Origin: Clostridia bacterium
GTDB lineage: Bacteria > Bacillota > Clostridia > Christensenellales > DTU072
Length of the DNA stretch: 64,000 nt
Direction: 5' to 3'
Assembly (NCBI GenBank): GCA_016297005.1
Contig: JAEDHK010000002.1
Span: forward strand, 132,837-196,836
Positions within the stretch are counted from its first letter, which is position 1. The number at the start of each line of letters is the position of its first letter. Shown piece by piece: positions 3,410 to 57,256 of the stretch. The position numbers and the translations under genes are program-made. The notes under the pieces are model-generated. The model ran no database searches, was not told the DNA's origin, and saw only the letters and a program-made list of their open reading frames with translations.

Positions 3410-4546
3410 TTATTGTTTCTCCTTTTTCTCGGCGTCGGCCTTTTCTTTTAAGATCTTCGCGTACTCTTCGTCGTCGAAGGGCAAAGAAACAGACTCCTTA
3501 CGCCAGTTCGATAAGTAAATCCCATTGATCAGCGTCAGCGCGCAAAGGCCCTCTTCCCCCCGGGCTACCAGGAGGTCTCTGTTTCCGCTGTCGACAGCCT
3601 TCCCGAAGGCTTCGATTACGCGCCATTGCTGTCCGTAAATAAGGTCGACCGCTTTGCGGATCGGACCGTAGCCGTATCGATAGGTGCGCATGGGCGTCGA
3701 ACCGTACCCCCGGGTGGTCTCCGCGTTGACTTGCGGCTCCGACTTTTTAAGGATGGTATAGGTCATCTTCCAGCTGGTAATGACGATGGTACCCTTCGTA
3801 CCGACGATGGTAAAACGGTTTTCGCCGGGCAGTTCGTGCGTGGACGCGCAGAAATAGCAATCGAAGTCCTTATATCCGAACACGGCATACAGATCGTTTT
3901 CCGTGCTGATATTTCTTCCCACAGTGCGACAAGACGACGTTATCCTCTCCGGCATACCGAGCAACCATTGCACAAGATCGAGCTGATGCACGCATTGATT
4001 GATGAGCGTACCGCCGCCCTCTCCGGACCAACTTGCTCTCCAACCTCCCTGGTTATAATATGCCTGTGAACGGTACCAGTCCGTAATGACGTAGTTTGCG
4101 CGCTGTATCTTGCCGATCGCGCCGCTCTCTATCAATTCTTTCGCCTTACGGTACATCCGATTGGTACGTTGATTGAACATCATCCCGAAAAACACTTCCG
4201 GATGCGCCTTAGCCGTTTCAATGACCGACTTCGCTTCCAACGTGGTAACGGTCAGCGGTTTTTCTACCACGGTATGTAATCCCGCCGTAATACAATCTTT
4301 CGCGATCTGTCCGTGAAAATAGTGCGGAACGGCGATCATGACGGCCTTACATACGCCCGACTCAATCAAATCCTTATGATTATAAAATCCTTTGACGGAA
4401 GGATGCTTTTTGCAAAAATCATCCACCTTTTTCTTATCCACGTCGCAAACGGCGACCAGTCTGGATCCTTTCATTCTGCCGGCAGCCAGATTGCCGGCGT
4501 GTTTTCCACCCATTCTTCCGATGCCGATAACAGCAAAATCAGCCAT
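3410..4546 (-). CDS. Gfo/Idh/MocA family oxidoreductase
   Basis: N-terminal Rossmann segment FAVIGIGRMGGKHA, VVEKPL (EKP) motif, 378 aa. Confidence 0.75.
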   Translation of the reverse strand: MADFAVIGIGRMGGKHAGNLAAGRMKGSRLVAVCDVDKKKVDDFCKKHPSVKGFYNHKDLIESGVCKAVMIAVPHYFHGQIAKDCITAGLHTVVEKPLTVTTLEAKSVIETAKAHPEVFFGMMFNQRTNRMYRKAKELIESGAIGKIQRANYVITDWYRSQAYYNQGGWRASWSGEGGGTLINQCVHQLDLVQWLLGMPERITSSCRTVGRNISTENDLYAVFGYKDFDCYFCASTHELPGENRFTIVGTKGTIVITSWKMTYTILKKSEPQVNAETTRGYGSTPMRTYRYGYGPIRKAVDLIYGQQWRVIEAFGKAVDSGNRDLLVARGEEGLCALTLINGIYLSNWRKESVSLPFDDEEYAKILKEKADAEKKEKQ

Positions 4547-5192
4547 TTAGTAATCTCTCCTTAAAATATTTTTTTGCTTCTCGCGGACAATGCGTCGTCA
4601 GGTTCGAAAAGTTGTAACAAGACAGCTTTTCGAGGGCGATGGGATCGTCCACCGTGTAGACGGACAAAGCAAGCCCCGCGTCCGCCGCCGCGGCATAAAA
4701 TCCCGGTTCCGTCCACTTATAATTGATATTCAGTCCCACGACGCGCTCGCCGTGCTTTTTTAAAGCCTCTTTCAAAACCTCGGCGTCCTCCGGCACCGGT
4801 CGCAATCCCTTGCAGAAGGGATATACGTTGGCATATAGCACCCCGGCCGAAAGTTTTTTTGCCTCCTTGGGAGACACGTTTCCGGTATAGATAATCTGTT
4901 CGTCCATTCCCATAGACAAGACGAGATCCTGCACTTTCTCAAATATGCCGTGTTCTTTTACGTCGAGATTGATCTTGACGTTCTTTTCTTTGGCGACGGA
5001 AAGCGCTTCCGCCAAAGCAGTCTTTTTCTGCGGAAAGAGCGAAGGAAAATGCGACAGGTACAGACATCCTTTCCTATACCGCACGTCCACTTCGAACGCG
5101 TCGGCCGAGATCCGTCCGCTTCCGACCGCTTCTAAATAATCTCTGCCGTTTGGTTTCGTTTTTTGCGCACCGCTGTGCGCTGTGATCAACAT
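4539..5192 (-). CDS. glycerophosphodiester phosphodiesterase (GDPD)-family protein
   Basis: 217 aa. N-terminal LITAHSGA and a TIM-barrel-like pattern resembling small UgpQ-like GDPDs. This is a motif-level call only. Confidence 0.5.
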   Translation of the reverse strand: MLITAHSGAQKTKPNGRDYLEAVGSGRISADAFEVDVRYRKGCLYLSHFPSLFPQKKTALAEALSVAKEKNVKINLDVKEHGIFEKVQDLVLSMGMDEQIIYTGNVSPKEAKKLSAGVLYANVYPFCKGLRPVPEDAEVLKEALKKHGERVVGLNINYKWTEPGFYAAAADAGLALSVYTVDDPIALEKLSCYNFSNLTTHCPREAKKYFKERLLNG

Positions 5193-5386
5193 CCCTCTTC
5201 GTTCTCCCTGAAAATGCCGTCAGAAATCGACAACTAAATACATTATACATGCGCGCATAGCAAAATGCAAGCCACTTTTTACATCCTTTTGCCCCTTTTC
5301 GTCTTCTTGTATGCAGTCGGAATCAATAAAAACCGATTTTCAGTCATGTATTGATTTTCCTGAAAAAAAAGTTTAAAATAATATTC

Positions 5387-6298
5387 ATGAGAAAAGAAAG
5401 CACCGAATTGAACGTAAAGGCTCCCAAAGTCAGAACCGCCGTCCTGACGAGAAAAATCGGGAGCAGAATCAAAAACTTTTTTACCTATAATCCGCCCGGC
5501 AGAAATCCCCGCGTATGGGAACTGGACCTTCTGCGCGGAATTATGATGCTTGCCGTCACTCTCGATCACATCTTACTGTTCCTGTATGAGTGGCAATTCA
5601 TAAATTTCAATACCGAAATCGGTCAAAGAATAATGGATTTTGCTTATCTCTATCGTAACGGCTCTTTCCGGGACGCCATGCAACCGCTCTCATTGTTTTT
5701 GTTTTCTTTTCTTGCCGGTCTGAATTGTCGATTTACTCGAAGCAGTTTTCGTCGGGTGCTGAAATTCTGGATCTTTTGCGCCCTTTTCATGGGTGGGTTC
5801 GCCCTTATTAAGGTCATCTTTCCAAATATGCTCGCCGTTTATCTCATTTTTAATATCGTCACCGTTCTCGCCATATCTTTCACTGTCTGGTGGCTCTTGG
5901 ACCTCGTCAAATTACCCGCCTGGATACGGGCCTCGATCGGTACCGTCCTGATCGTCATCGGTATGGTATGCTACTACAAATATTTTGCTGAATCGGAAGA
6001 TTTTTACGTGCAAAACGAGTTTTTGGCGCTTATGGTCTATAACAGACACGGGTTTGAAATGTCCGCCAATAATTTTGAGCCCCTTCTTCCCCATCTCGGT
6101 TGGTTTTTGATCGGCGGCGTCATCGGTATGTTCGCTTATCCCGACAATAAAACCCACTGTAAACAGATCTATCCGCCCAAGCCGTTACGGCCCTTGCTCC
6201 TTATCGGAAAGCACTCGCTCTTCTTCTATCTTACCGGCCCCGTTATTATCCTCGCTCCGTTGTGGCTCGTCGTGTTGATCGTCGGTTTATTCCTATAA
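5387..6298 (+). CDS. multi-pass membrane protein, DUF1624 / heparan-glucosaminide N-acetyltransferase-like
   Basis: WELDLLRGIMMLAVTLDH resembles the DUF1624 N-terminal signature, and about 7 hydrophobic segments follow. Start is uncertain: TTG at 5351 or ATG at 5387, neither with a clear RBS. Confidence 0.45.
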   Translation: MRKESTELNVKAPKVRTAVLTRKIGSRIKNFFTYNPPGRNPRVWELDLLRGIMMLAVTLDHILLFLYEWQFINFNTEIGQRIMDFAYLYRNGSFRDAMQPLSLFLFSFLAGLNCRFTRSSFRRVLKFWIFCALFMGGFALIKVIFPNMLAVYLIFNIVTVLAISFTVWWLLDLVKLPAWIRASIGTVLIVIGMVCYYKYFAESEDFYVQNEFLALMVYNRHGFEMSANNFEPLLPHLGWFLIGGVIGMFAYPDNKTHCKQIYPPKPLRPLLLIGKHSLFFYLTGPVIILAPLWLVVLIVGLFL

Positions 6299-6323
6299 TC
6301 TCAAAATAATTAACGCATTAAAA

Positions 6324-6365
6324 CAAAAGCCCTCTCGCTTCGCTACGAAAGGGCTTTTGTTTTAT
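6324..6365. terminator. bidirectional rho-independent terminator between convergent genes
   Basis: AAAAGCCCTcTCG...CGAaAGGGCTTTT hairpin flanked by A- and T-runs. Confidence 0.65.
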
Positions 6366-6372
6366 AATAAGT

Positions 6373-7731
6373 CTATCCCAAGATTGAGACGGCAAGACCG
6401 CAATATAGGATCAAAGAAAGAGCGTCGACAATAGTCGTAATGAACGGGCTGGCAACGACGGCCGGATCGAGCTTGACCTTTTTAGCAAGCATCGGCAGCA
6501 TGCATCCGACCAACTTAGCGATTACGACGGTACACATTAAAGCAAGAGACACGACCAAGCAGGTAAAGGGCGTATAGTCCTTATACCCGAAAAGCAGATT
6601 GTCTATGAGCATCAATTTACCAAAGCACGCCACCGCCAAAGAAACGGCCAAAAGGAGCGAGGCTCTGATTTCTTTCCATAACACGCGGAACGCGTCTTTT
6701 GTAGTAATCTCGTTCAGCGCAAGAGAACGAATAACGGTGACCGACGCCTGAGAGCCGGCGTTACCGCCCGTGTCCATAATCATCGGCACGCAGGCAAAAA
6801 GCACCGAACTGATCAGGGATAATTTACCTTCGAACGTATTCAGAATAAGACCGGTAAACGTGGCCGAAACCATAAGAACAAGCAACCACGGAATGCGGTT
6901 TCGCCAGATGGCGAAGACGCTCGTCTTCAAATAGGGCTTATCGCTCGGCTTAACGGCGGCCATCTTAGCGATATCTTCGGTGTTCTCTTCCTGCAAGACG
7001 TCCATAGCGTCGTCGATGGTAATGATACCGACCAATCTTACTTCGCTGTCCACAACGGGGATTGCCAGAAAAGAATACTTATCGAACATCTGCGCGGCCG
7101 TTTCTTTATCGGCATGCGTTTCAATATAAATAACGTGATCCTCCATGATGTCTTCTACTTTCGTTTCATACGAATGGAGCAAAAGATCTTTGACCGTAAC
7201 AAGTCCCAGCAAGTGTCGACAATCGTCGATAACGTAACAAGTATAAACCGTCTCTTTATCGATACCGTTTTTTCTGATCTGCGCGAAGCTCTCCTCGACC
7301 GTCATCGTCGGATAGAGATAGACGTACTCGGTCGTCATGATTGAGCCGGCGCTGTCCTCAGGATATTGTAAAATAGTATTGATGGCCGATCTCGTCTCTG
7401 CGTCTGCCTGTTGCAAAATACGCCTGACTATGCTTGCCGGCATCTCTTCGATAAGATCAACGGCGTCGTCGACGTACAGTTCGTCCATAATCTGCTTTAA
7501 TTCTTTATCGGAAAAGCGCCTGATCAGGATTTCTTGCAGGTCGCTGTCCATCTCGACGAACGTTTCCGCCGCAAGATCTTTCGGGAGCAGGCGAAAAACG
7601 ACGGGAAGATCGCTCTCGTCCACCTCGGACAGAATATGCGCAACGTCCGCTCCGTTCATTTCGGAAAGAATCGGTTTCAGTTCTTTAAAATTCCTTTGTT
7701 CAAGAAGAGAAAAAATAATTTGCTCATCCAT
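6373..7731 (-). CDS. mgtE: magnesium transporter MgtE
   Basis: N-terminal MgtE domain, tandem CBS region and a C-terminal 5-TM domain with DTGGNAGSQ. Start trimmed to the ATG at 7731 (MDEQII...), preceded by GGAGG 6 nt upstream. Confidence 0.9.
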   Translation of the reverse strand: MDEQIIFSLLEQRNFKELKPILSEMNGADVAHILSEVDESDLPVVFRLLPKDLAAETFVEMDSDLQEILIRRFSDKELKQIMDELYVDDAVDLIEEMPASIVRRILQQADAETRSAINTILQYPEDSAGSIMTTEYVYLYPTMTVEESFAQIRKNGIDKETVYTCYVIDDCRHLLGLVTVKDLLLHSYETKVEDIMEDHVIYIETHADKETAAQMFDKYSFLAIPVVDSEVRLVGIITIDDAMDVLQEENTEDIAKMAAVKPSDKPYLKTSVFAIWRNRIPWLLVLMVSATFTGLILNTFEGKLSLISSVLFACVPMIMDTGGNAGSQASVTVIRSLALNEITTKDAFRVLWKEIRASLLLAVSLAVACFGKLMLIDNLLFGYKDYTPFTCLVVSLALMCTVVIAKLVGCMLPMLAKKVKLDPAVVASPFITTIVDALSLILYCGLAVSILG

Positions 7732-46776: not shown

Positions 46777-48921
46777 TTATTCTTCCGCGTTGCCGTCTTG
46801 TTTGGTCGGCTCTTCCTCTTTTACGGATTCGGCTTCTTCTTTCTTTTCTTCCGCTTCGGATTTCTCTTCCGTTGCCGTTACTTCATTTTTTGCTTCTTCG
46901 GTTTTCTGCGAACCGCGGATCTTCTTTTTGATCTTACGGATGGCCCACATAACGAGGAGAACGATCGCGACAACAATCAGAATCCCACAAACAACGATGG
47001 CCATGATGGTGTTGGTGGTCAGCTTGATCTTCTTTTCTCCCGTCCAATCGATCTTTGTTCCGCCCTTCACTTCGGTACCGCAAAAATCGTTCCATTCTCC
47101 GTCCCATTCTTCCGGTTGTTCGCCGAGAGCAACGTTGATCTCGCCGAGATTGGAGCATCCGCTGAATGCGTATCCGCCGACGTAATCTATCGTCTTGGGA
47201 AGAGTGATCTTGGTCAAAGAAACACAGTTATAAAACGCATAGGCGCCGATCGATTTCACATCTTCCCCGATCACGATCTCGTCTATATCCTTCTCTCCGA
47301 CGCGCAATTTTTCGCCGTAATACAAAGGATTGGCTTCGGGATCGTCGAAGCGGATTCCGCACCACTTATCTACGTTTGCAATCGCTACGCCGCCGTTTTT
47401 AAGATGCAGGCATCCCTTGAACGCGGAAGCACCGACGCTTTCCAGACTTTCCGGCAAGGTCGTTTTGATAAACCCTCCGTTCACGAATGCATACGCCCCA
47501 ATAGATTTGACGCCGTCAGGCACGACGATCTCTTCCGCTTCCGCACCGTTCAGGTACAACTTCCCGGCCTGGAACAGTGGGTTAGAAATGGCGTCTTCAA
47601 ACACATATCCGCACCATGCGGTCAAGTCGTCGATATATACGCCGCTCAACTTAAAGCAGTTATTAAAGGCTTCCGAACCGAATGAAAGAGAAACCTTTTT
47701 CTCGCTATTTCTCTTGATCGTAATCTTTTCAACGTTAATACAGTTATTAAAAGCGCCTTTTCCGACGGACTCGGCGTCCTCGGGCAGTTCTATCTCGGTA
47801 ATGGTAACGCAGTTATCGAATGCTCCCGCGCCGACGGACTTCGTTTTGTCGGACAGGACGCAATCGGTCAGAGCGATACAGTTATCGAAAGCGTTATCGC
47901 CCAACGTCTCGACTTCCTGCGCGTCATTTACCGCCTGCAATTTGACACAGTTTCTGAAAGCGCCGGCGCCGATCGATCTGACCGTGCCGGGAAGGGAGAT
48001 TGTCGTCAGCCCGACGCAGTTCTCGAAAGCGGATTCGCCGACCGATCTGATACCGTCGCCGATGTCGACGTTATTGAGTCCGCAACAGTCGTAGAACATC
48101 GCCGGGGAGATATCTCCGATAGCTGCGGGGATACGTACGCTGTTCAGGCTCGTACATCCGGAAAAAGCTTTTTCGCCCACACTATTGACGGTTTCGGGGA
48201 TATCGATACTTTCAAGAGAAGTACACCCTTTGAATGCGCTTGCGCCGATCTTTTCCAGACCGTCCGGCAACGTAATGTTTTTCAGTCCGCTGCAATCGGA
48301 AAAGGCATAATCGGAAATATACTTGGTACCCGCTTCGATATCGTCGGCCGTAAGTACGGTATTGGGCGCCATATTGCCTTTGAATTCGTAAAGAAAACTA
48401 CCCACGTAAATGATCTTGCCGTTGGGCTGGTCTTTATACCAGGCGGTATCTTCAAAAGCGCCCTCGCCGATACCGGTGACCGATTTAGGCACGCTGATGT
48501 CTTTTAACGCGGTACAACCGGAAAAAGCTCCGGCTCCGATCCTCTCCAAACCTTCGTTCAGTTCCAGCGTTTTAAGAGTGGACCAGTTGAGACAGGCGTT
48601 GTCGCCGATGGTCTTCACGCCGGCTTCTATAATGAGCGTGCTGAATTCACACCCGCTGAAAACGTTTTTACTCCCGTCGCCCAGGGCGACGACCTTCTTG
48701 CCTTTGTGTTCGGCGGGGATGACGATGGGCTTATCTTTGACGACGGTACAGGCAGTCACAGTCAACGTTCCGTCTCCGTTATCCGCAGTCGTAAGGACGT
48801 AATAGTCATACCTTATTTCTCCGCAAGCAGACAGTGCCGTTACGGAAATTATTGCCATCAACGCCGTCAAAACGACGAGTATGACGAATTTAACAATTTT
48901 TTTCTGTGCGGAAGTATGCAT
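46777..48921 (-). CDS. BspA-type LRR surface protein with N-terminal lipobox and C-terminal TM + charged tail
   Basis: Start at the ATG at 48921 (AGGAGG RBS). Lipobox VTALSAC. About 15 LRR_5 units. C-terminal TM IMAIVVCGILIVVAIVLLVMWAI followed by a K/E-rich tail. Confidence 0.8.
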   Translation of the reverse strand: MHTSAQKKIVKFVILVVLTALMAIISVTALSACGEIRYDYYVLTTADNGDGTLTVTACTVVKDKPIVIPAEHKGKKVVALGDGSKNVFSGCEFSTLIIEAGVKTIGDNACLNWSTLKTLELNEGLERIGAGAFSGCTALKDISVPKSVTGIGEGAFEDTAWYKDQPNGKIIYVGSFLYEFKGNMAPNTVLTADDIEAGTKYISDYAFSDCSGLKNITLPDGLEKIGASAFKGCTSLESIDIPETVNSVGEKAFSGCTSLNSVRIPAAIGDISPAMFYDCCGLNNVDIGDGIRSVGESAFENCVGLTTISLPGTVRSIGAGAFRNCVKLQAVNDAQEVETLGDNAFDNCIALTDCVLSDKTKSVGAGAFDNCVTITEIELPEDAESVGKGAFNNCINVEKITIKRNSEKKVSLSFGSEAFNNCFKLSGVYIDDLTAWCGYVFEDAISNPLFQAGKLYLNGAEAEEIVVPDGVKSIGAYAFVNGGFIKTTLPESLESVGASAFKGCLHLKNGGVAIANVDKWCGIRFDDPEANPLYYGEKLRVGEKDIDEIVIGEDVKSIGAYAFYNCVSLTKITLPKTIDYVGGYAFSGCSNLGEINVALGEQPEEWDGEWNDFCGTEVKGGTKIDWTGEKKIKLTTNTIMAIVVCGILIVVAIVLLVMWAIRKIKKKIRGSQKTEEAKNEVTATEEKSEAEEKKEEAESVKEEEPTKQDGNAEE

Positions 48922-48957
48922 CCGACGTCCTCCTATGGGTCTCAATAAATATTATGA

Positions 48958-48986
48958 ATTATAAGTCTATTTAACAGTTTTGTCAA
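48958..48986 (-). promoter_or_regulatory. consensus promoter of the LRR gene
   Basis: Minus strand TTGACA (48986-48981), 17-nt spacer, TATAAT (48963-48958). Confidence 0.65.
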
Positions 48987-48992
48987 TGGACA

Positions 48993-49196
48993 TTATTTTC
49001 TTTTTATCGCAAAATACAGGATAGTAAACACAAAAAACGCACCGTTGACGGCGGCCGCTGCAATGCACAGCGGAAAGAACCATTCCGGCACAAAAATAAC
49101 TCCTTTGATCTTTCCGACCAGGACCCAGGTCGTCATCCCTGCAAAGACGAGATCGAACAAGACGGTCACGCCCATCAGGATAAGATAAATAAGCAT
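48993..49196 (-). CDS. small 2-TM membrane protein (67 aa)
   Basis: ATG at 49196, 4 nt after the stop of the GLUG gene. MLIYLILMGVTVLFDLVFAGM... has two hydrophobic helices. The longer 108-aa ORF would overlap the upstream gene. Confidence 0.5.
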   Translation of the reverse strand: MLIYLILMGVTVLFDLVFAGMTTWVLVGKIKGVIFVPEWFFPLCIAAAAVNGAFFVFTILYFAIKRK

Positions 49197-49200
49197 TCCT

Positions 49201-52023
49201 TTACTTGGCTTCACTTTCGAATACCTCCTTGTATGCGTCGCTTTTTTCCATCTCTTCCTCGGTGGAGTAGGCCGTTGTCTGCAAATCGTAGACTTCTTCC
49301 GGTGCGTCGTCGTAATCATTTATTTTTCCGAAACCTTTCTTATCCGTTCCGACGTAATTGTTTTTGTAATAATAAGCGTTGTTGGAAAAACTTTCTTCCA
49401 ACACGCTTTCCAGATTACTGTCATCTCCGTACATCATGATACAATACTGTTTAGCTTTTTCTCTGTTTGCCTCTTTATATGTGTACGTATACTTGACGGA
49501 ATAACCGTCCGCACTCCCGACCACGCCTCCGACAAAAGAGCCGTCGCCTGCCGCAAATTCGCACGACGAGAAGCAATGCCCAACCTTTCCCTGTTCGTTT
49601 TTACCGACGATACCTCCTAAAACGGAAGAACTCCCGGCCGTCGTCTTAACGGAGGTTTTCGAGATCTTGACGATACCGCCGGCATTATAGCCGATCAATC
49701 CGCCGATAGCGCTCTCCGCGTCCCCGGATAAAGTCCCTTCCGCTTCACATTCGCTCACAACCGCAGACGACTTACCGACGATACCGCCCGCCGTAGTCTT
49801 TTCTCCGGCCTCAATCGTAACGGTTGCGGAACATCCGCTGATAGTGGTCGAAAGGTTATTTTGATAAGAAGAGCTGCCGACGATGCCTCCCAAAAAGCAT
49901 TCGTCCCGGACCGTAGCCGTCAACGTAGAAGCGCAGTTTATGACTCTTCCGTCCCCGGTGCCCACGATGCCTCCGGCATAGCCCTTGTTGCCCGCCTCTA
50001 TCGTTGAAGTCGCGGTACAGCCTTCTATTGAATATCTGCCTAATCCGGCTATTCCTCCGACTGTAAGGCCGTTTTTTCCTTTCAGTTTGCCGTTGAATTC
50101 ACATCCGCTTACGTTAACGGTTGTCGCTCCCGCAATACCACCGACGTAATTATCCTGTTCCGCTTCGCCAAGTGAAGTAATCGACGCCGTTGACGTAACG
50201 CCGAAAACGCCCAAATAAGGAGAGTAATAATACAGTGACGTCGGCGAGGTATTGCACCCGACCGCACCGCCGAGGAAAAACCGCTGAGCGTCGCATTCGA
50301 TATTGGCCGACGTTTCGCCCCCCGTCACCTTTCCACCATTATTAAATCCGACTATTCCGCCGGCGTTAACGTCGTTCGTATCCTCGGATAAACATTCTAT
50401 CCGTACGGAAACGACAGCGTTTTCGACCGAACCAAATCGGTACGTATTGTTTTCCAGTCCATAATAATTGATACCGGCGATACCGCCGACGAACGACCGT
50501 GATTCTTTTGCTTCCGTTTTGAGAGATCCGGAAGAAACGCACCCGACGATCGTGCCCGTATTCAACGAAACGACGCCTCCGACGTAAAAGAGCGCGCCTT
50601 GCGATTTACCGGCAATTTCACCATCGAACCGACAGTTTTCTATCGTGCCCTCATTGATACAAGATATCCCTCCAAGATATACGACTTCCGATTGCTCTTC
50701 CGTCGAGTCTGTCGATTCTAACTCGCACGTTGCCGTAACCGAACCCTTAGATAAGCAGTCCGAAACGGTGCCGTAATTATGCAGGCACACGCCGGCCACG
50801 TTCGGCGACCATCCTTTCTGCGACGTCTCCTGCGACAGGCTTGCGTTGCTTTCGCACCCGGAGATAACGCCCCCTTCTTTGTTCTCGGCGACCAGTCCTG
50901 CGAGATCCGTCGTTGTGGAAGCAACTTTCCCGCTTGTAGAACATTTGGTTACCGTTCCGCTGTTTTCGGAAACCAATACGGACAGATACGCATTCCTTCC
51001 GCCCGGATTATCCGCTGTCAGATCGCACGTTATCGCACACCCCGAGACGATTCCGCTATTCTGCCCGACGAAGGCCGATATATACACGGTTTCTTGCTCT
51101 TGTTCTTCGCCTGCATTCTCTTTTTCTTTGACCGAGATCTTTCCTTTAACGGTCAATTTCACGTTTTCGAGGGTACCGGTATTCTCAGCGATCAACAACG
51201 CCAGACTTTCGCTTGTTTCCACTTCGCCCGCGTCGATCACGAATTCCACGTCCTTGATCGTACCCTCCGTTTGAGAAAAGACCGTGCCGGCGGAACTTGC
51301 GGACAAGGCCACTTTGTGTCCGTTACCGTTCAGAGAGCCCTTGAACGCCGTACCCGGGTTTACCGTCAACGTAACGTCGTCGGCGAGCTTGTAATATCCT
51401 TCGTTTTGTAGTGCGAGGACAAGCTGTTTTTCGCTGCTTATCGTAACCGGGCTGTCTTCCGTTCCTTTGTCGTTCGGCATTAAAAAGTATCCGAGCAAGG
51501 CGCAGGCAACTATGACGATCGACAAAGCGCACGCCACGTACGTCGTGATTTTTTGCAGACGCGGCGTATGTTGACGGCGTATACGAATGCGATTTTTTCC
51601 GAACTCGACGACGCTACCGAATATCGTTTCCGCCGCATAAGCGATCTCTTCACGTATTGTCTCGTCCTTATAGGCGATAGGATAAAGGGTTTTCAGGCTG
51701 TCGTGCCGACCGAGCAGGGCGAGCATGACGAGCGGAGAAACGGGCCGCCTTGCGCCGACGAACAGTCTTAAAACGCGATGAGCGCGCTTACGGAAAAGAT
51801 AATAACTCTCTCTGTCTTCTTCGACGATCGTATAACGAGAGACAGAAAGGAGCTTTTTTTCGTAGGTTAATGCGATCTTGACGCTACCGTACAGATAGCA
51901 AAGACTGAGCAGAGGAAAGCGACCGAAAGAATACTTTTCGGTATCTTTGTTGAATTCTTTTTTAAATGCGGTAAGATCGTCTTTTTTGATTGCCGCAAGC
52001 AGTTTCTTTGCTTTCTCCTCCAT
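49201..52023 (-). CDS. type II membrane protein: cytoplasmic N-domain, one TM, extracellular GLUG-motif (beta-helix-like) repeats
   Basis: RIRIRRQHTPRLQK then TM ITTYVACALSIVIVACALLGYFLM. Entry motif FKGSLNGNGHKV. Many GG(I/V)(A/V)G repeats (VGGIAGINY, AGGIVGFNNG, VGGIAGATT, IGGLIGYNAG, LGGIVGKNEQ, VGGVVGSADG). Confidence 0.65.
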   Translation of the reverse strand: MEEKAKKLLAAIKKDDLTAFKKEFNKDTEKYSFGRFPLLSLCYLYGSVKIALTYEKKLLSVSRYTIVEEDRESYYLFRKRAHRVLRLFVGARRPVSPLVMLALLGRHDSLKTLYPIAYKDETIREEIAYAAETIFGSVVEFGKNRIRIRRQHTPRLQKITTYVACALSIVIVACALLGYFLMPNDKGTEDSPVTISSEKQLVLALQNEGYYKLADDVTLTVNPGTAFKGSLNGNGHKVALSASSAGTVFSQTEGTIKDVEFVIDAGEVETSESLALLIAENTGTLENVKLTVKGKISVKEKENAGEEQEQETVYISAFVGQNSGIVSGCAITCDLTADNPGGRNAYLSVLVSENSGTVTKCSTSGKVASTTTDLAGLVAENKEGGVISGCESNASLSQETSQKGWSPNVAGVCLHNYGTVSDCLSKGSVTATCELESTDSTEEQSEVVYLGGISCINEGTIENCRFDGEIAGKSQGALFYVGGVVSLNTGTIVGCVSSGSLKTEAKESRSFVGGIAGINYYGLENNTYRFGSVENAVVSVRIECLSEDTNDVNAGGIVGFNNGGKVTGGETSANIECDAQRFFLGGAVGCNTSPTSLYYYSPYLGVFGVTSTASITSLGEAEQDNYVGGIAGATTVNVSGCEFNGKLKGKNGLTVGGIAGLGRYSIEGCTATSTIEAGNKGYAGGIVGTGDGRVINCASTLTATVRDECFLGGIVGSSSYQNNLSTTISGCSATVTIEAGEKTTAGGIVGKSSAVVSECEAEGTLSGDAESAIGGLIGYNAGGIVKISKTSVKTTAGSSSVLGGIVGKNEQGKVGHCFSSCEFAAGDGSFVGGVVGSADGYSVKYTYTYKEANREKAKQYCIMMYGDDSNLESVLEESFSNNAYYYKNNYVGTDKKGFGKINDYDDAPEEVYDLQTTAYSTEEEMEKSDAYKEVFESEAK

Positions 52024-52024
52024 C

Positions 52025-52741
52025 TTACTTCTTGATCTTTACCTTTCTCGACGCCGCCCATTTATCGATAACGGTATAGATATATTCTTCATTGACGTCG
52101 TTACTTTCGGCAATTTTTTTCAGTAGCTCGGCGTTCTTTTGCGAAGATTCTAACAGAGCGTCCACGGACGCCCGTTCTTCGGACAATTCTTTTCCCAGAT
52201 TCTCTTCTCCTTGCTTGATTGCGTCGATCTTGCGGGCGTTTTCACTGAGCACTTCGGCTACGTCCTTGTTAATAAAATCGCTCACTTTCCGTACGTTGTT
52301 GTCGTATCCTTCGAGCGAACGTTGCAGATCGCGGAGATTATAGTTTATTTTCTTTTCTTCGATCACCGCGTCCAGCTTTTTGATCTGTTCGGAAGCTTTT
52401 CCTTCGATCTCGTTGATTGCGGAAATCCGTTGTTCGGTCTTTTCGAGTAACGTTACGAGATTGTCGATCTGCGCCACGTACTTGGACGTCGCTTTTGCAA
52501 ACTGCTCTATCCGGGAAGAAAGATCGGTACTCTTTTCCGCCTGAGACGCAAGCGTTCGCGCAATCGACTGAAGATTGCTTTGCGCGCTTCCGTCGAAAGC
52601 TGAATTCAACTTCTCAATATCGTCGCGCACCCCATTATACGTCTCCAAAAAATCCGTTAGTCCGCTTTGAATGGGCGTCAGCAGATCCCGATAGCCGACA
52701 AAAGCGTCGATAAGGGTCTTTAAGTCTTCTGTCTTGTCCAT
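52025..52741 (-). CDS. cytoplasmic coiled-coil protein (hypothetical)
   Basis: 238 aa, heptad-rich, with no TM or signal peptide. Its start lies 2 nt after the helicase stop, and its stop lies 1 nt before the next ATG. Confidence 0.55.
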   Translation of the reverse strand: MDKTEDLKTLIDAFVGYRDLLTPIQSGLTDFLETYNGVRDDIEKLNSAFDGSAQSNLQSIARTLASQAEKSTDLSSRIEQFAKATSKYVAQIDNLVTLLEKTEQRISAINEIEGKASEQIKKLDAVIEEKKINYNLRDLQRSLEGYDNNVRKVSDFINKDVAEVLSENARKIDAIKQGEENLGKELSEERASVDALLESSQKNAELLKKIAESNDVNEEYIYTVIDKWAASRKVKIKK

Positions 52742-52743
52742 AC

Positions 52744-55167
52744 TTACCTTCCTTTATTCTGTTTGAATTTTCGGTTGATTTCTTTCTGATTTTCGGCGAG
52801 GCGCGCAAGGTCGGTTTCCAGGACGCGAAGAATGAGCGCGCGCGCCCCCTCGTTCTCCGTAAGATCGGGATAAAACTTTACGACGCTCGCGTCCAGCGAA
52901 CCCGCATTTCCCTTCGTGATTGCGTCCACAAGTTCTACCAGGGCTTCGTCTCCCGACAAAGAAAACATTTCTTTCGCGTCGTCCGTCATGCCCAGTTGCC
53001 AATATTTTATTCCCGCGTCGCGATAAGCGCCGTGACGAACGAATTCTTCGTTGACGTCGATACGATTATTATAAGCGCGGCGCAAAGCGTCGTCCTCGAT
53101 CTTGTCCGCCAAAAAGCGAGCGTTATCATACTGTCCGAGCCGTACGAACTGCATCGTCCGTTCGACAATCTCGTCCTGATCGACGTCGATCCTGCGTACC
53201 ACTTCGGAAAGTTGTTCAACCGCTTCTTCCTCGCTCTTTTTCTCAAAATTCTTCTTGAAGAACGTCGCAAACAACGGCACTTCTTCTCTTTCGGCCACAT
53301 ACAGATATTGTTTTGCGCGAGATACGCCGACGTAGAATAGATTGAAATAATAACGGTAGACGGAGTTTTCATCTGCCGTTTTTCGATTGATCGAGTTCCT
53401 TTCAAGCGCCCTCCACCTATCTCCGTTATCGGAAAGGACGTTATAAAGAAGCACCGCTTCCCGCTCCAATCCTTTAATTTCCGAGATGATCAGAATTTCT
53501 TGCTTTTTCAGCACTTTTCTCAATCTTTCTTTCTCTTTCGCACCCGAACAAACCACGGTAAAGTTATCGAAGTTTTCTTTGGCGATCCGTTCGGCAAAGC
53601 CATCCCCTCGTACGTACACCGCCGAGGTTTGCGCGCCGCTTTCCACGCTTTGGCCTTTCAGGACGAAACTGTGCGTTCCGAACCGGGAACGGTTAATTTC
53701 GCCGAGGGATTCGATGATTTTTTCTATTTTTTCGCTGTTGCGATAATTATGTTTCAGTTCAATCACCGACGCTTCGTCTTCCTTGAAAAGAAGTCTTTTT
53801 AAATAAGCGAAACCGAAATACGACGGATTGATCATCTGGAGAGCGTCGCCCACGCAAAAGATCCGGAAAGATATCTTTTTGAACAGAAATAGGTTGACCT
53901 GTGTAAAGTCCTGCACTTCGTCGAGAATGGTCAGAGAATAAAGCTGTCCGCATTTCTCGATCAACTTCCGACTGATGGAGTTATTGTCTTCCAATCCTTC
54001 CCTTTCCATAAACTTTCCGTAATCGACGGCGATAGAGTAGATCGCGTCGCTTTCCGCTTTGCCGAAATCGTTTTTGCGCGCTTCTATATACTCCTCTCTC
54101 GTCATACAGGGGGCGGGGCGGGCGGGGTCGTAACGTCCGTAAATCATACCGAAGATCTCTTTGTAGATTACCTCGTACGATATCTCTTTCAGTTTGTCCA
54201 ACATCCCCGTTAAACGATAGTTCTTCAAATTGCCTACGTATTCTTTAATAAAAAAGCCTTCGTCCGTTACCTCTCTTTCTCCGATATGCTTCTTATACAG
54301 ATCTTCGAGCAAAAAATAATCGACCTGCGTTTCTAAAAAAGAAATAACGGAACGGACCTTTTCTACAATTTCTTTTTCTCCATCGACGGTAAACAGGATT
54401 CCCAGGCGATTTTCAATGGCTGAACGATGGTTTTTGTCGCAAAACACGATCCGACCCTCTTCGTATTGCCGAACAAACTCGGTCAGACTCTTCTTGAAAA
54501 GATTAACGCGGGTCTTGGTATCGACGAGCAATCCTCGCGAGAAAGTGGAATACAGAACCCGACCGGCATAATCTCTGCTTGCGGCGTAGATGATCTTGTC
54601 GATACAAATATTGGTCTTTCCGCTGCCAGCCACCCCTTGTACGAGGACATTTTTGTCCTCCGTCGTCACGATCTTTCTCTGTTCGCAATTAAGCAGGGGG
54701 AAGTTTACGGCGTCCGAATGAGACAGACGATATATCTTTTTGAATTCGACTGCCGAAAAAGCGTCCTTGATCGAACGCACCGTCAACAAAAAATGCTTAT
54801 GCGAGAGCAAAAAATCGATAAAACGCTGATCGTTGGTCCGACTGCGTTTTTCCCGATCGATATATCTGAAAAAAACGATATCTTTGGGAAGCAAGGGCAG
54901 GTCGGATTCGATCTGACAACCGAAGCGAAACAAAAAAGAATGTTCTCCGCCCTCGGTCGACACGAAATAAGCGTTCTCCCTCTCTTTTACAAACGAAAAG
55001 TCTCGGAGAGACGACCATACGCCTTCGGCAATTTTAAACAAAAAATCATCCGTGCCCGACATGCGCCGGGTCTCTTTAATGAATTGTTCCGTTTTAAAAA
55101 CTCTGCTTTCCGAGGATAAAAAACTTTTTTCTGCCTCTACGCGCAACGTTCGCTCTTTTTCTGCCAT
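52744..55167 (-). CDS. UvrD/Rep-like SF1 helicase with unassigned N-domain and C-terminal helical-repeat region
   Basis: SF1 motifs in order: VQGVAGSGKT (I), TFSRGLL (Ia), ILDEVQDFT (II), CVGDALQMI (III), HNYRNSEKI (IV), IKGLEREAV (V), YVGVSRAKQYLYV (VI). Confidence 0.75.
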   Translation of the reverse strand: MAEKERTLRVEAEKSFLSSESRVFKTEQFIKETRRMSGTDDFLFKIAEGVWSSLRDFSFVKERENAYFVSTEGGEHSFLFRFGCQIESDLPLLPKDIVFFRYIDREKRSRTNDQRFIDFLLSHKHFLLTVRSIKDAFSAVEFKKIYRLSHSDAVNFPLLNCEQRKIVTTEDKNVLVQGVAGSGKTNICIDKIIYAASRDYAGRVLYSTFSRGLLVDTKTRVNLFKKSLTEFVRQYEEGRIVFCDKNHRSAIENRLGILFTVDGEKEIVEKVRSVISFLETQVDYFLLEDLYKKHIGEREVTDEGFFIKEYVGNLKNYRLTGMLDKLKEISYEVIYKEIFGMIYGRYDPARPAPCMTREEYIEARKNDFGKAESDAIYSIAVDYGKFMEREGLEDNNSISRKLIEKCGQLYSLTILDEVQDFTQVNLFLFKKISFRIFCVGDALQMINPSYFGFAYLKRLLFKEDEASVIELKHNYRNSEKIEKIIESLGEINRSRFGTHSFVLKGQSVESGAQTSAVYVRGDGFAERIAKENFDNFTVVCSGAKEKERLRKVLKKQEILIISEIKGLEREAVLLYNVLSDNGDRWRALERNSINRKTADENSVYRYYFNLFYVGVSRAKQYLYVAEREEVPLFATFFKKNFEKKSEEEAVEQLSEVVRRIDVDQDEIVERTMQFVRLGQYDNARFLADKIEDDALRRAYNNRIDVNEEFVRHGAYRDAGIKYWQLGMTDDAKEMFSLSGDEALVELVDAITKGNAGSLDASVVKFYPDLTENEGARALILRVLETDLARLAENQKEINRKFKQNKGR

Positions 55168-55351
55168 ATATATAATACTAACACATATACTTTAAATTAA
55201 CAATAAAATGTGCCCCGTCGGCTTGCGTTGCGCCGCCATTTTTTCATCGATTATCCGGCTTTCGGTTTTTTAATCATCAAAAAAAGAGTACGGCTTGCGC
55301 GGAGCTATCCCGACCCCGCCGTGGATTGCCGCGAATAAAAAATACTGTTTT

Positions 55352-57256
55352 TTACCGATCCGCTCTTTGTTCTTCCTCTTTTTTGCAGCGATCCTCTTTG
55401 ACTTTCAAGAAACGGGACTTCGCAACGAAATCCTTTCGGAAAGCCTCTTCGTCAAAAGGCGTCTTTGCCTTCTTCTTCGCGCGACCGAGCATAAACTGAT
55501 ACCGCTTTTCTTCCATTTCGCAATCGCGTAAAAAGGCCTCTTCTTTCTCTTTTTCTTCCCGTTGCGCTTTCCGCTCGCAAGCGGCTTCGTAATGTTCAAG
55601 TATCTTATCGTACTCGGTATGTTTATTAAATTCGTCGCGAAGATATCCGGTAATGCCGGCGGCGTTCTTTTCGTCGTTATAGTAGTCGACGATCTCTTTG
55701 ACGTTCAGAACGTCTTCGTCGGTCAGGTCGCCGGTATTATAGTTGGCACAGGCGGCGCGAAGGCGCAACGCTCGTACGATATCGGCATGCTTTTTCTCGC
55801 TCAGATTATAAAAAGCCATGGGCAGAATGCGCCCGAGAGATCCGAGGAAAGCAAGCAACGTGGTAAAGAAAAACGCGCTGTACATTTTTTCTTTGTTGGC
55901 GAACGCAACGTCGATGGGGTCGCCGAACCCGATCCCGGCCATACTCATAAAGATGGGAGAAAGCATCCCCGTAAAAACGCCGATGACGGTGGTCAGAAAG
56001 CCGCCGTAATTGTTCCAGAATCCGTCCAGCCTCTTGCCCGATCGGTACTGTTCGTAGTCGAGTGCCTCGCTCGTCATGATGTCGGTATAAAAATTGAAAC
56101 TGCCGAACGTGAGGTGCAAGAATGTGCACAAAAGTATAAGAATAGGAAGCCTGTATGCAAGGAGCTGCAACCCAATCGCCGCGCTATAAAGAATGTTAAC
56201 GATACCGAGGACTTTGACTTTCCCGAACTTTTTCGACAGGATCGGGCCTAAAAAGATACCCACGCCGCATCCCAGACCGAGCGTCATATTGCAGACGCCG
56301 ATCAGTGTGTCGCCGACCGCTCCACCGACAGCATAATAGCATACCCACAAGTAAAAGTTTGCGCCGCCGGCGATGCCGTTAAAAATGCCGAAGATCCAGA
56401 TGAGCCAAAAATATTTATTGGTACTGAGCGCTTTTGCTCCTTCCCAGAAATTGACTTTCGCTTCGAACTTTCTTCCGGCGACCATACGCTCTCTTGTGCC
56501 CTTATAAGCAAAGAGGATAAGTCCGATATTGAGGACGGCGCAGATCGGAAAGATAATACGATAAACAAGCACGTTACCCGTGCCGCCTGAAAAGAACCAC
56601 GCCGCAATAAAAGGGATCGCAACGCCGAAGATATTGGACGGCCAAGATCCGAAAAGACTGAGTACAGACGCGATGATCGACCGCTCCTGAGAAACGCTCG
56701 TTATGGTGTTTTTCAGACCGTTCAGACCTTGAGAAACAAATTCGTACACGAACCCCGCCGCGTCGTTCAGAAGCCACGCCGCAAGCACCCCCAACGTAAG
56801 CGTAACCTGAGACGCCTCGGCGATCCCCATAACGGGGATGGCCGGGATAACGAACGACAGCACGTCCGTATTTATCCACGTTTGAGGAATAAACGGTATG
56901 GCGGTAAGAAGCAATGCGGAAATAACGGTGGGAACGACGAGAAGTCGCCGGAACTTGCCGTTGAGCGACTTACTGTTGTCGATTACCATAGAAAGAATCG
57001 GACGCTTAATAAACGCGAGCACGGTGCCAAGCAGACCGAGAATAAAAAGAATGCCGGTAGAAACTTTAAAGTAAGAAACCATCAACGGAACGGACGTCGC
57101 CATGCCCGCCCAGGTAGTAAAAACCCCGTGCAAAGCGTTCCCCATGTGGCCTACGACGAGATTACTCATTTCTTTATACGAGACCTCGTACCCTTTGGGC
57201 GGGGTGTTCCAATACCCGCGGAATTTATACCATAAGTTAATTACTTTTTCCTTCAT
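55352..57256 (-). CDS. GPH/MFS_2-type glycoside:cation symporter with ~190-aa charged cytoplasmic tail
   Basis: About 12 hydrophobic segments over aa 30-440, then a hydrophilic K/E-rich C-terminus. Located next to the GH38 gene. Confidence 0.55.
   Translation of the reverse strand: MKEKVINLWYKFRGYWNTPPKGYEVSYKEMSNLVVGHMGNALHGVFTTWAGMATSVPLMVSYFKVSTGILFILGLLGTVLAFIKRPILSMVIDNSKSLNGKFRRLLVVPTVISALLLTAIPFIPQTWINTDVLSFVIPAIPVMGIAEASQVTLTLGVLAAWLLNDAAGFVYEFVSQGLNGLKNTITSVSQERSIIASVLSLFGSWPSNIFGVAIPFIAAWFFSGGTGNVLVYRIIFPICAVLNIGLILFAYKGTRERMVAGRKFEAKVNFWEGAKALSTNKYFWLIWIFGIFNGIAGGANFYLWVCYYAVGGAVGDTLIGVCNMTLGLGCGVGIFLGPILSKKFGKVKVLGIVNILYSAAIGLQLLAYRLPILILLCTFLHLTFGSFNFYTDIMTSEALDYEQYRSGKRLDGFWNNYGGFLTTVIGVFTGMLSPIFMSMAGIGFGDPIDVAFANKEKMYSAFFFTTLLAFLGSLGRILPMAFYNLSEKKHADIVRALRLRAACANYNTGDLTDEDVLNVKEIVDYYNDEKNAAGITGYLRDEFNKHTEYDKILEHYEAACERKAQREEKEKEEAFLRDCEMEEKRYQFMLGRAKKKAKTPFDEEAFRKDFVAKSRFLKVKEDRCKKEEEQRADR

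Follow-up and report, generated by a model that had tools for sequence, protein, structure and literature searches.

The subject of this study is a cassette of four closely spaced minus-strand genes in a stretch of 64,000 nucleotides (hereafter the window) from the Clostridia assembly GCA_016297005.1 (contig JAEDHK010000002.1, positions 132,837 to 196,836). The window lies on contig C34 of a metagenome-assembled genome (MAG) of 1.86 Mb, here called G000. The cassette encodes a superfamily 1 (SF1) helicase of the UvrD type, a coiled-coil protein, a membrane protein with a GLUG-repeat ectodomain, and a small peptide with transmembrane (TM) segments. We established that these genes form one conserved functional unit, that in most species the unit is preceded by a paralogue of release factor 1 (RF1) from which the codon-reading loop has been deleted, and that the window represents a derived state in which the operon was split and both halves were retained. 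As a tentative reading of its function, to which we assign a probability of roughly 0.4, we propose that the cassette is a membrane-tethered conflict or defence machine acting on translation.

A conserved cassette and its displaced release factor

The helicase gene (52744-55167, 807 aa), the coiled-coil gene (52025-52741, 238 aa) and the GLUG membrane protein gene (gene 3; 49201-52023, 940 aa) are open reading frames (ORFs) on the minus strand. They are followed by the gene for the small TM protein (gene 4; 48993-49196, minus strand), which has 67 aa when counted from the ATG 4 nt past the GLUG stop; a longer frame of 108 aa, overlapping the GLUG gene, is also present. Stop and start codons are separated by 2, 1 and 4 nt (TAA-GT-ATG, TAA-G-ATG and TAA-AGGA-ATG), and the gene sizes and spacing agree with those in the preliminary description of this DNA, which had been made from the letters alone.

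That description saw a translationally coupled operon in these genes, proposed a survey of neighbourhood conservation, and named a lack of synteny in other genomes as the result that would speak against the coupling. In our species-level survey, which used one genome per species of the GTDB, 226 genomes contained a relative, and the best 80 loci were analysed; all 80 carriers are MAGs of Christensenellales type that come from guts and rumens. Where the locus could be evaluated, the helicase is succeeded by the coiled-coil gene in 79/79 cases and the membrane protein gene is in place in 72/72; neighbouring genes mostly overlap by 1-11 nt or are separated by short gaps. Because gene order is kept in all evaluable loci, the objection from missing synteny fails. 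Within the genus of the window a full-length helicase orthologue occurs in 16 of 25 genomes, with 45-92% identity, and the order helicase, coiled coil, membrane protein is intact in each of the 14 orthologous loci that were fetched. The arrangement is far beyond chance, and the proposal of a single functional unit is borne out by synteny that extends down to 45% helicase identity and into a sister family whose helicase is only 28% identical.

The small peptide is an optional last gene of the cassette. Its membership in the operon, as first described, holds for the window, where it is in place, and does not hold generally, since a hidden Markov model matched it in 27 of the 62 evaluable loci. 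In roughly a dozen further loci the third position downstream of the helicase is taken by an unrelated small TM ORF, and in about 20 there is none.

The distribution of the cassette is patchy, both within the genus (present in 16/25) and in the order, where it was found in 29 of 301 evenly drawn genomes, corresponding to 12 of 150 genera and about 7 families. The flanks of this main family are ordinary and vary from species to species. Each flanking gene family is shared by at most 7 of the 80 loci, and the main family therefore has neither a fixed chromosomal site nor a recurrent mobile neighbour.

The four-gene operon of the preliminary description is thus real as a unit, and what it missed is the usual first gene, a codon-blind RF1 paralogue that here lies on another contig. 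In 68 of about 76 evaluable loci this release factor (RF) gene is located directly upstream of the helicase and co-directional with it, and the two reading frames often overlap by 4 nt. The RF product, 316-345 aa long in the more distant orthologous loci, contains the PCRF and RF-1 domains and carries an invariant SGAGGQNVNKV motif. Comparison with the housekeeping RF1 of the same genomes revealed an 8-residue deletion that removes the PxT (PET) codon-reading loop; the GGQ motif is invariant and the C-terminal part is degenerate. Every genome checked for the paralogue also encodes an ordinary RF1 and an ordinary RF2. In a maximum-likelihood tree all operon RFs form one clade, sister to RF1 (support of 99 in the Shimodaira-Hasegawa-like approximate likelihood ratio test), and the unlinked RF copies of G000 and of the related genomes G001 and G002 nest inside this clade.

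The unlinked copy of the window genome is found at G000:C13:50614-51498 (L028:7603-8553). Its RF-1 match (107 bits) and its PCRF match (49.6 bits) both exceed their cut-offs, as expected of a class-I release factor, and the stop-codon tripeptide of that class (PxT in RF1, SPF in RF2) is missing together with the deleted loop. The gene adjoins argG/argH and shares 4 nt with the start of a gene for a 548-aa protein, a GLAA-B beta-barrel joined to a right-handed beta-helix (G000:C13:50614-53884 = L028:7603-10884), after which a gene for an MBL-fold protein follows. The same pairing of RF and beta-helix protein is present in G002, with 70% identity. In G001 the RF paralogue stands alone, and an unlinked copy also occurs in G016 and in the genome of locus L036. 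ORFs that resemble ArgG/ArgH, judged from N-terminal sequences only, are also found close to the G021 cassette (L015), and one that resembles ArgH is found close to the L026 sister cassette.

In two further loci the RF paralogue is adjacent but inverted: in L033 (14273-15355; G021) it is convergent and located 2 nt past the last cassette gene, and in L099 (6805-7794) it is divergent and located 147 nt upstream of the helicase. These loci may represent intermediate stages of the split that the operon has undergone in the clade of the window. Cassette and third RF occur together in 16 of the 25 genus genomes and are both absent from the other 9 (of which G022 is fragmentary), with no discordant case. 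Because the unlinked RF nests in the operon-RF clade and co-occurs with the cassette, the window represents a derived, split state.

Selection was evaluated against G002 as ratios of non-synonymous to synonymous substitution (dN/dS), which are approximate because dS is about 1. The helicase (92% identity, dN/dS 0.043) and the coiled coil (93%, 0.039) are strongly constrained, much as the asparaginyl-tRNA synthetase AsnRS used for comparison (94.5%, 0.031), even without the RF in cis; for the helicase core a value of 0.03 is listed against the nearest species. Higher ratios were obtained for the cytoplasmic domain of gene 3 (76%, 0.13), its ectodomain (65%, 0.16; the whole gene likewise 0.16), the 67-aa peptide (85%, 0.14) and the unlinked RF paralogue (64%, 0.24). 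The fast-evolving parts of the system are the ectodomain and the RF copy.

The start of the helicase gene has its own signature. A candidate promoter, TTGTTA-17-(TGt)TAGTAT (55175-55203, minus strand), ends 7 nt before the helicase ATG; the TG in front of TAGTAT makes it an extended -10 element, and there is no Shine-Dalgarno sequence. It matches the consensus at 8/12 positions, for which reason a generic promoter scan omitted it. The layout, consisting of TTGTTA or TTGTAA, a 17-nt spacer, TGnTAnnAT and 6-10 nt to the ATG, is found upstream of the helicase in 5/5 species of the window's clade, and the sequence further upstream differs completely among these five. In a comparison that allowed several candidate starts for the first gene and whose controls include non-genes, an extended -10 element stands 4-9 nt before the start in 31/70 first cassette genes versus 4/532 control ORFs, and Shine-Dalgarno-like motifs occur in 9/70 versus 267/532. 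In front of the unlinked RF gene of G000 the sequence is TGATACAAT, then 8 nt, then the ATG. The promoter-like element, its spacing and the missing Shine-Dalgarno sequence can be read directly, as first reported; the leaderless helicase mRNA proposed along with them we infer with the support of these comparisons.

A sister family without the RF defines what is common to all cassettes. One genus member carries, on G018:C32, a second locus (L026) with a helicase 28% identical to that of the window, a 331-aa coiled coil, and a 174-aa copy of the ankyrin-like domain of gene 3 that has no TM helix. A search with this helicase retrieved a small subfamily (P0275-P0282) on AT-rich contigs of 23-35% GC. 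They encode the same trio with the TM helix present and with a variable C-terminal part of 185-828 aa, in which LRR_5/Flg_new/Glug matches, or almost nothing, take the place of the GLUG region; in L131 LRR_5/Flg_new/Glug constitutes the ectodomain of the anchor protein. No RF-like gene was found in any frame of the P0275-P0282 contigs. Because this RF-less family carries the trio, we take the conserved core to be the helicase, the coiled coil and the ankyrin-like anchor, and the RF to be an addition of the main family.

The sister cassettes sit in defence and mobile contexts. Directly upstream of the cassette on L128 (65-5006; 25% GC) are a phage-type integrase and a complete Gabija system (GajA 8e-173, 575 bits; GajB 3e-174, 579 bits). 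In L026 an AT-rich stretch (9-2877) directly precedes the cassette and encodes a 565-aa protein with a weak dsRBD match and a DarT-like domain, a DarT1-associated NADAR protein (8e-65) and a 173-aa protein of no assigned family; PADLOC 2.0 did not recognise these genes. A MobL relaxase was found on one other contig, and a Rep_ORF2-G2P protein with a serine recombinase on another. On L132 a gene for an 806-aa Sel1-repeat protein (4448-6868) comes after the anchor gene, whose last 7 nt it shares, and may represent an extra lineage-specific component.

The encoded proteins and the flanking genes

The first gene was correctly described as encoding a UvrD-like helicase with all SF1 motifs. Its match to the Pfam family UvrD-helicase (PF00580) scores 38.5 bits, above the gathering cut-off of 23, and motifs Q and I-VI of the SF1A class are invariant in an alignment of 31 sequences (Q163, GSGKT 181-185, DEVQD 416-420, GD..QMINP 440-448, YRN 475-477, KGLE 565-568 and YVGVSRA 612-618). 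The UvrD/PcrA-like core (aa 167-640; 53248-54669, minus strand) has its ATPase and translocase motifs intact. In a profile search of the PDB it matched PcrA (2e-12), HelD (6wvk_H, 3e-8) and UvrD (3e-8), all of them remote, and its NCBIfam scores fall far under every equivalog cut-off (e.g., PcrA, 32.7 vs 911).

The core is preceded by a compact, family-specific alpha/beta domain (aa 1-166; 54670-55167, minus strand) with the conserved residues L17, K25, T26, F29, D40, D96, F99, D113 and Y146. AlphaFold2 modelled it with a predicted local distance difference test score (pLDDT) of 92 and a predicted template-modelling score (pTM) of 0.89. The best Foldseek match of this model in the PDB was the HigB2 toxin (E 0.013, probability 0.95, TM-score 0.34/0.47, high root-mean-square deviation), and a second lead was Cami1, a RelE-type ribosome-dependent RNase (E 0.14, low TM-score). 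A PDB profile search with the domain gave nothing, nor did Foldseek against the viral structures of BFVD, and Pfam over 45 such domains gave a single match that is noise (PF06296, E 0.37). A RelE-like fold is thus only a lead from structure modelling. In three helicases from another family or genus of the order (G161:C10:77064-79145, G289:C67:30738-32705 and G085:C8:9484-11454) the profile match starts only at position 97 or 145, and these seem either to have no N-domain or to have a different one. The C-terminal domain (aa 641-807 and the stop codon; 52744-53247, minus strand) has conserved alignment columns. Its Pfam matches are sub-threshold (TPR_8/TPR_2, in 2 of 10 members), and it is possibly a TPR-like helical repeat.

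The coiled-coil protein is soluble, has no TM segment and contains one proline. Its hydrophobic residues recur with a periodicity of 3.5 (z = 8.5), and its length is nearly fixed at 236-242 aa in 71 loci. Its only matches are weak ones to coiled-coil families (ZorA tail, JetC, LmuB and Fib_alpha). Neither this protein nor the 67-aa peptide, which has 2-3 hydrophobic or TM segments and the motif FVPEWFFPLCIAAAAVNG, gave a Pfam match above cut-off or an informative NCBIfam or PADLOC match.

The product of gene 3 begins with a cytoplasmic domain (aa 1-160; 51544-52023, minus strand) marked by the motif FGRFPxLSxCYLY...YE...VSPLEML. Its AlphaFold2 model (pLDDT 86, pTM 0.73) is weakly ankyrin-like: all 50 of the 50 best Foldseek matches in the PDB are ankyrin-repeat proteins, at E values of 0.05 or more and TM-scores of 0.3-0.55. 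Neither Pfam, including Ank, nor a PDB profile search yielded a match for it. Among 1.84 billion proteins the domain family forms 346 clusters at 50% identity; the 150 best matches listed all carry the domain at or near the N-terminus, and most of these proteins are 600-1,089 aa long. A single TM helix follows (aa 163-181; 51481-51537, minus strand; Kyte-Doolittle mean 2.59 over 19 residues). Because it is preceded by R/K residues, the protein is predicted to have an N-in, type II topology, and a TM helix is located somewhere in residues 155-204 in every full-length orthologue.

The extracytoplasmic region (aa 185-940; 49201-51471, minus strand) contains GLUG-type repeats, belongs to the Pfam family Glug (PF07581; 56.2 bits vs a cut-off of 20.5, 2.5e-15), and is fast-evolving and variable in length. 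Beyond Glug, gene 3 has no informative match in Pfam, NCBIfam or PADLOC. Among its orthologues the whole protein ranges from 598 to 1082 aa, and the ectodomain is 39% identical to that of the next species where the helicase is 77% identical. No DNA-level repeats or inverted repeats able to drive switching of the ectodomain were found.

Upstream of the cassette are genes for a GH38 mannosidase and an MFS transporter. Downstream lies a gene for a BspA-type leucine-rich repeat (LRR) protein, followed by AsnRS, GDPD and AsnA. The LRR gene's own perfect sigma-70 promoter (TTGACA-17-TATAAT; 48958-48986, minus strand; 12/12 in the scan) marks the 3' limit of the cassette, and no terminator-like hairpin was found between the two. 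The LRR protein (46777-48986, minus strand) has hydrophobic segments at both ends, and its gene is found 3' of the cassette in the two nearest species only. It might be a detached or alternative surface module, as the anchor ectodomain of L131 itself consists of LRR_5/Flg_new/Glug. The MFS/GPH-type transporter (55352-55924, minus strand) has a long C-terminal tail rich in K, E and R. Just past its stop, at about 55270-55340, a hairpin with a T-run was recognised by eye, though it is absent from the terminator scan list, and probably ends the transporter transcript ahead of the cassette promoter.

Possible roles of the cassette

Under our preferred reading, the ankyrin-like domain and the coiled-coil protein would tether the helicase beneath the membrane, and the GLUG ectodomain would face the outside and meet an adversary or signal there. 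The motor and the codon-blind RF, the latter supplied in trans in the window's clade, would act on translating ribosomes or mRNA near the membrane, and the purpose may be a conflict role directed against phages or other mobile genetic elements. We favour such a role because the ectodomain and the RF evolve fast, the distribution is patchy, and the sister family resides beside defence systems and mobile elements. The defence-like flavour noted in the preliminary description thus receives indirect support from the sister family's neighbours, namely Gabija, DarT-NADAR, the integrase, the relaxase and the recombinases.

Several observations weigh against the reading as a defence machine. The defence-island context comes from five or six contigs of the sister family (28-32% helicase identity) and not from the main family, and in the window the cassette sits among ordinary genes (GH38, MFS, AsnRS) outside any island. 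A search of 2.9 million viral contigs yielded no homologue, and plasmids contained only distant helicases with 22-31% identity, none at a useful level of similarity; these results do not support a main family that arose on phages or plasmids. PADLOC reported weak, fragmentary GajB-type matches for the helicase and none for the membrane proteins. The co-occurrence of RF and cassette is partly due to shared ancestry, and the RelE-like and ankyrin-like assignments derive from weak Foldseek scores alone.

The conflict reading can be sharpened into a model that is improbable. According to it, the cassette would be a new immune machine composed of a hypervariable surface sensor, an ankyrin-like anchor, a coiled coil, and an SF1 motor whose RelE-like domain would dock on ribosomes. 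A trigger at the envelope (e.g., an adsorbing phage or injected DNA) would make the motor load the codon-blind RF on ribosomes and cause local termination of translation. If true, this would be the first defence system with a release factor as its effector, and in the window's clade that effector would work in trans.

The main rival, which we consider unlikely but nearer in probability to the preferred reading than any other alternative, is an accessory housekeeping role: rescue or quality control of ribosomes by a membrane-tethered system. In such a system the tethered helicase and coiled coil would recognise ribosomes stalled during membrane insertion or secretion, the codon-blind RF would free the nascent chain, and the ectodomain would merely be an anchor or regulator. 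An RF paralogue with an intact GGQ and a deleted decoding loop is what one would expect of a stop-independent release factor, and it is tightly coupled to the helicase in most species and co-occurs with it perfectly in the genus. The weak HigB2- and Cami1-like matches of the helicase N-domain point to a fold that docks in the ribosomal A site, and the chromosomal, non-island context of the main family also suits a housekeeping function. However, a rescue function leaves the hypervariable and modular ectodomain unexplained. It also does not account for an RF copy that evolves fast (64% identity where the helicase has 92%) although its presumed target, the ribosome, is conserved, for an RF-less sister family that keeps the trio in defence and mobile contexts, or for the absence of the cassette from about 90% of the order and from 9 of the 25 genus members.

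Less likely, and improbable, is signalling of the anti-sigma type, in which the membrane protein would sequester a HelD/UvrD-like motor through the coiled-coil adaptor and free or activate it when the ectodomain binds a ligand such as a host glycan, a neighbouring cell or envelope damage. Remodelling of RNA polymerase or nucleic acids by this motor would then change gene expression. The topology is that of an anti-sigma factor, with a cytoplasmic protein-binding domain, one TM helix and a variable sensor ectodomain; GLUG and LRR ectodomains are typical of adhesin-like surface proteins, and the helicase has a weak similarity to HelD, a recycling factor of RNA polymerase (NCBIfam 8e-8, in addition to the PDB match to 6wvk_H). 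That similarity reaches only 30.6 bits against a cut-off of 419, however, and the model gives no role to the co-occurring RF paralogue, nor are there conserved regulator or target genes beside the cassette, whose flanks vary by species.

Handling of DNA at the envelope (uptake, exclusion or translocation), with the SF1 helicase working on DNA that crosses the membrane, is very improbable. Among solved structures the core comes closest to the DNA helicases PcrA and UvrD, and genes for a relaxase, for a Rep protein and for recombinases accompany the sister family on its elements, but the cassette has no channel-forming, competence or conjugation component, its membrane protein has a single TM helix, its conserved partner is a translation factor and not a DNA-binding protein, and nothing points to the DNA translocation that the preliminary description had also considered.

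If the proposed link between the cassette and translation holds, the cassette would represent an undescribed bacterial connection of the cell surface to translation, made through a helicase motor and a dedicated stop-blind release factor, and it would define a new class of ribosome-directed systems with a role in either rescue or immunity. A function would likewise follow for several hundred protein families now annotated as 'ATP-dependent helicase' or 'hypothetical' in the Christensenellales, a gut lineage with few cultured representatives. The window itself is a natural experiment. Because its RF gene has been separated from the operon and both parts nevertheless persist and co-occur, the cooperation of RF and cassette is directly testable.

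Relation to known systems

The preliminary description knew of no described system with this combination of genes, and this assessment stands: the combination matches no described system in Pfam, NCBIfam or PADLOC, and no description of it was found in the literature. Individual components nevertheless resemble parts of several known systems. With Zorya, which it resembles in logic, and with PrfH, which its RF resembles, the cassette has nothing in common beyond generic folds.

With UvrD, PcrA, Rep and HelD the cassette helicase shares all SF1A motifs, and PcrA, HelD and UvrD are its nearest solved structures. Unlike them it has a short 2B region, additional domains at the N-terminus (166 aa) and the C-terminus (167 aa), and obligate operon partners; an assignment to HelD was rejected on the score for its equivalog, NF041464. 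The GajB component of Gabija is, like the cassette helicase, a divergent UvrD-like SF1A helicase, and GajB models are the best PADLOC matches of the latter. However, these matches are partial (three fragments, 51 bits at best, where a true GajB scores 579), the N- and C-domains of the cassette helicase are foreign to GajB, no GajA, an ATPase-TOPRIM protein of the OLD family, is present in the window, and the neighbouring genes encode the coiled coil and the MFS transporter. Gabija was rejected as an identity for the window cassette.

Cami1 and the multidomain RelE/ParE (BECR-fold) defence toxins provide a precedent for a RelE/HigB-like domain fused to a larger, ribosome-directed regulatory protein (PDB 8phj; PMC11980606). 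The similarity of the helicase N-domain to them is weak (E 0.013-0.3, TM-score at most 0.48) and is not accompanied by sequence support, and no helicase fusion is described in PMC11980606.

Zorya resembles the cassette in its logic, as an envelope component, a cytoplasmic helical element and a soluble helicase-type effector are encoded in one operon (PMC11946911). In that system the ZorAB membrane complex recruits, through a long coiled-coil tail, the soluble ZorC and the helicase-nuclease ZorD (PMC11946911). In contrast, the cassette has no MotA/ExbB-type channel, no ZorB, no ZorC and no SNF2-type ZorD, its anchor crosses the membrane once and joins an ankyrin-like domain to a large ectodomain, and its RF partner has no counterpart in Zorya. 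The identification was rejected, the only match being a weak one of gene 2 to the ZorA-tail coiled coil (E 1.6e-4), with none for genes 3 and 4.

For the release factor, the closest parallel is PrfH (RF-H) with RtcB2, in which a release-factor homologue and an RNA ligase take part in the rescue and repair of damaged ribosomes (PMC1586002; PMC12829566). In both cases a class-I RF paralogue that has kept GGQ and lost normal stop reading is encoded in a small, patchily distributed operon with a nucleic-acid enzyme. The cassette RF is not PrfH, as it is derived from RF1, to which it is sister, and contains the PCRF domain (domain 1), which homologues of the PrfH type lack. The gene next to it encodes the helicase in 68 loci and the beta-helix protein in G000. 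Instead of RtcB, its partners are an SF1 helicase, a coiled coil and a membrane anchor, from which it has become unlinked in the clade of the window.

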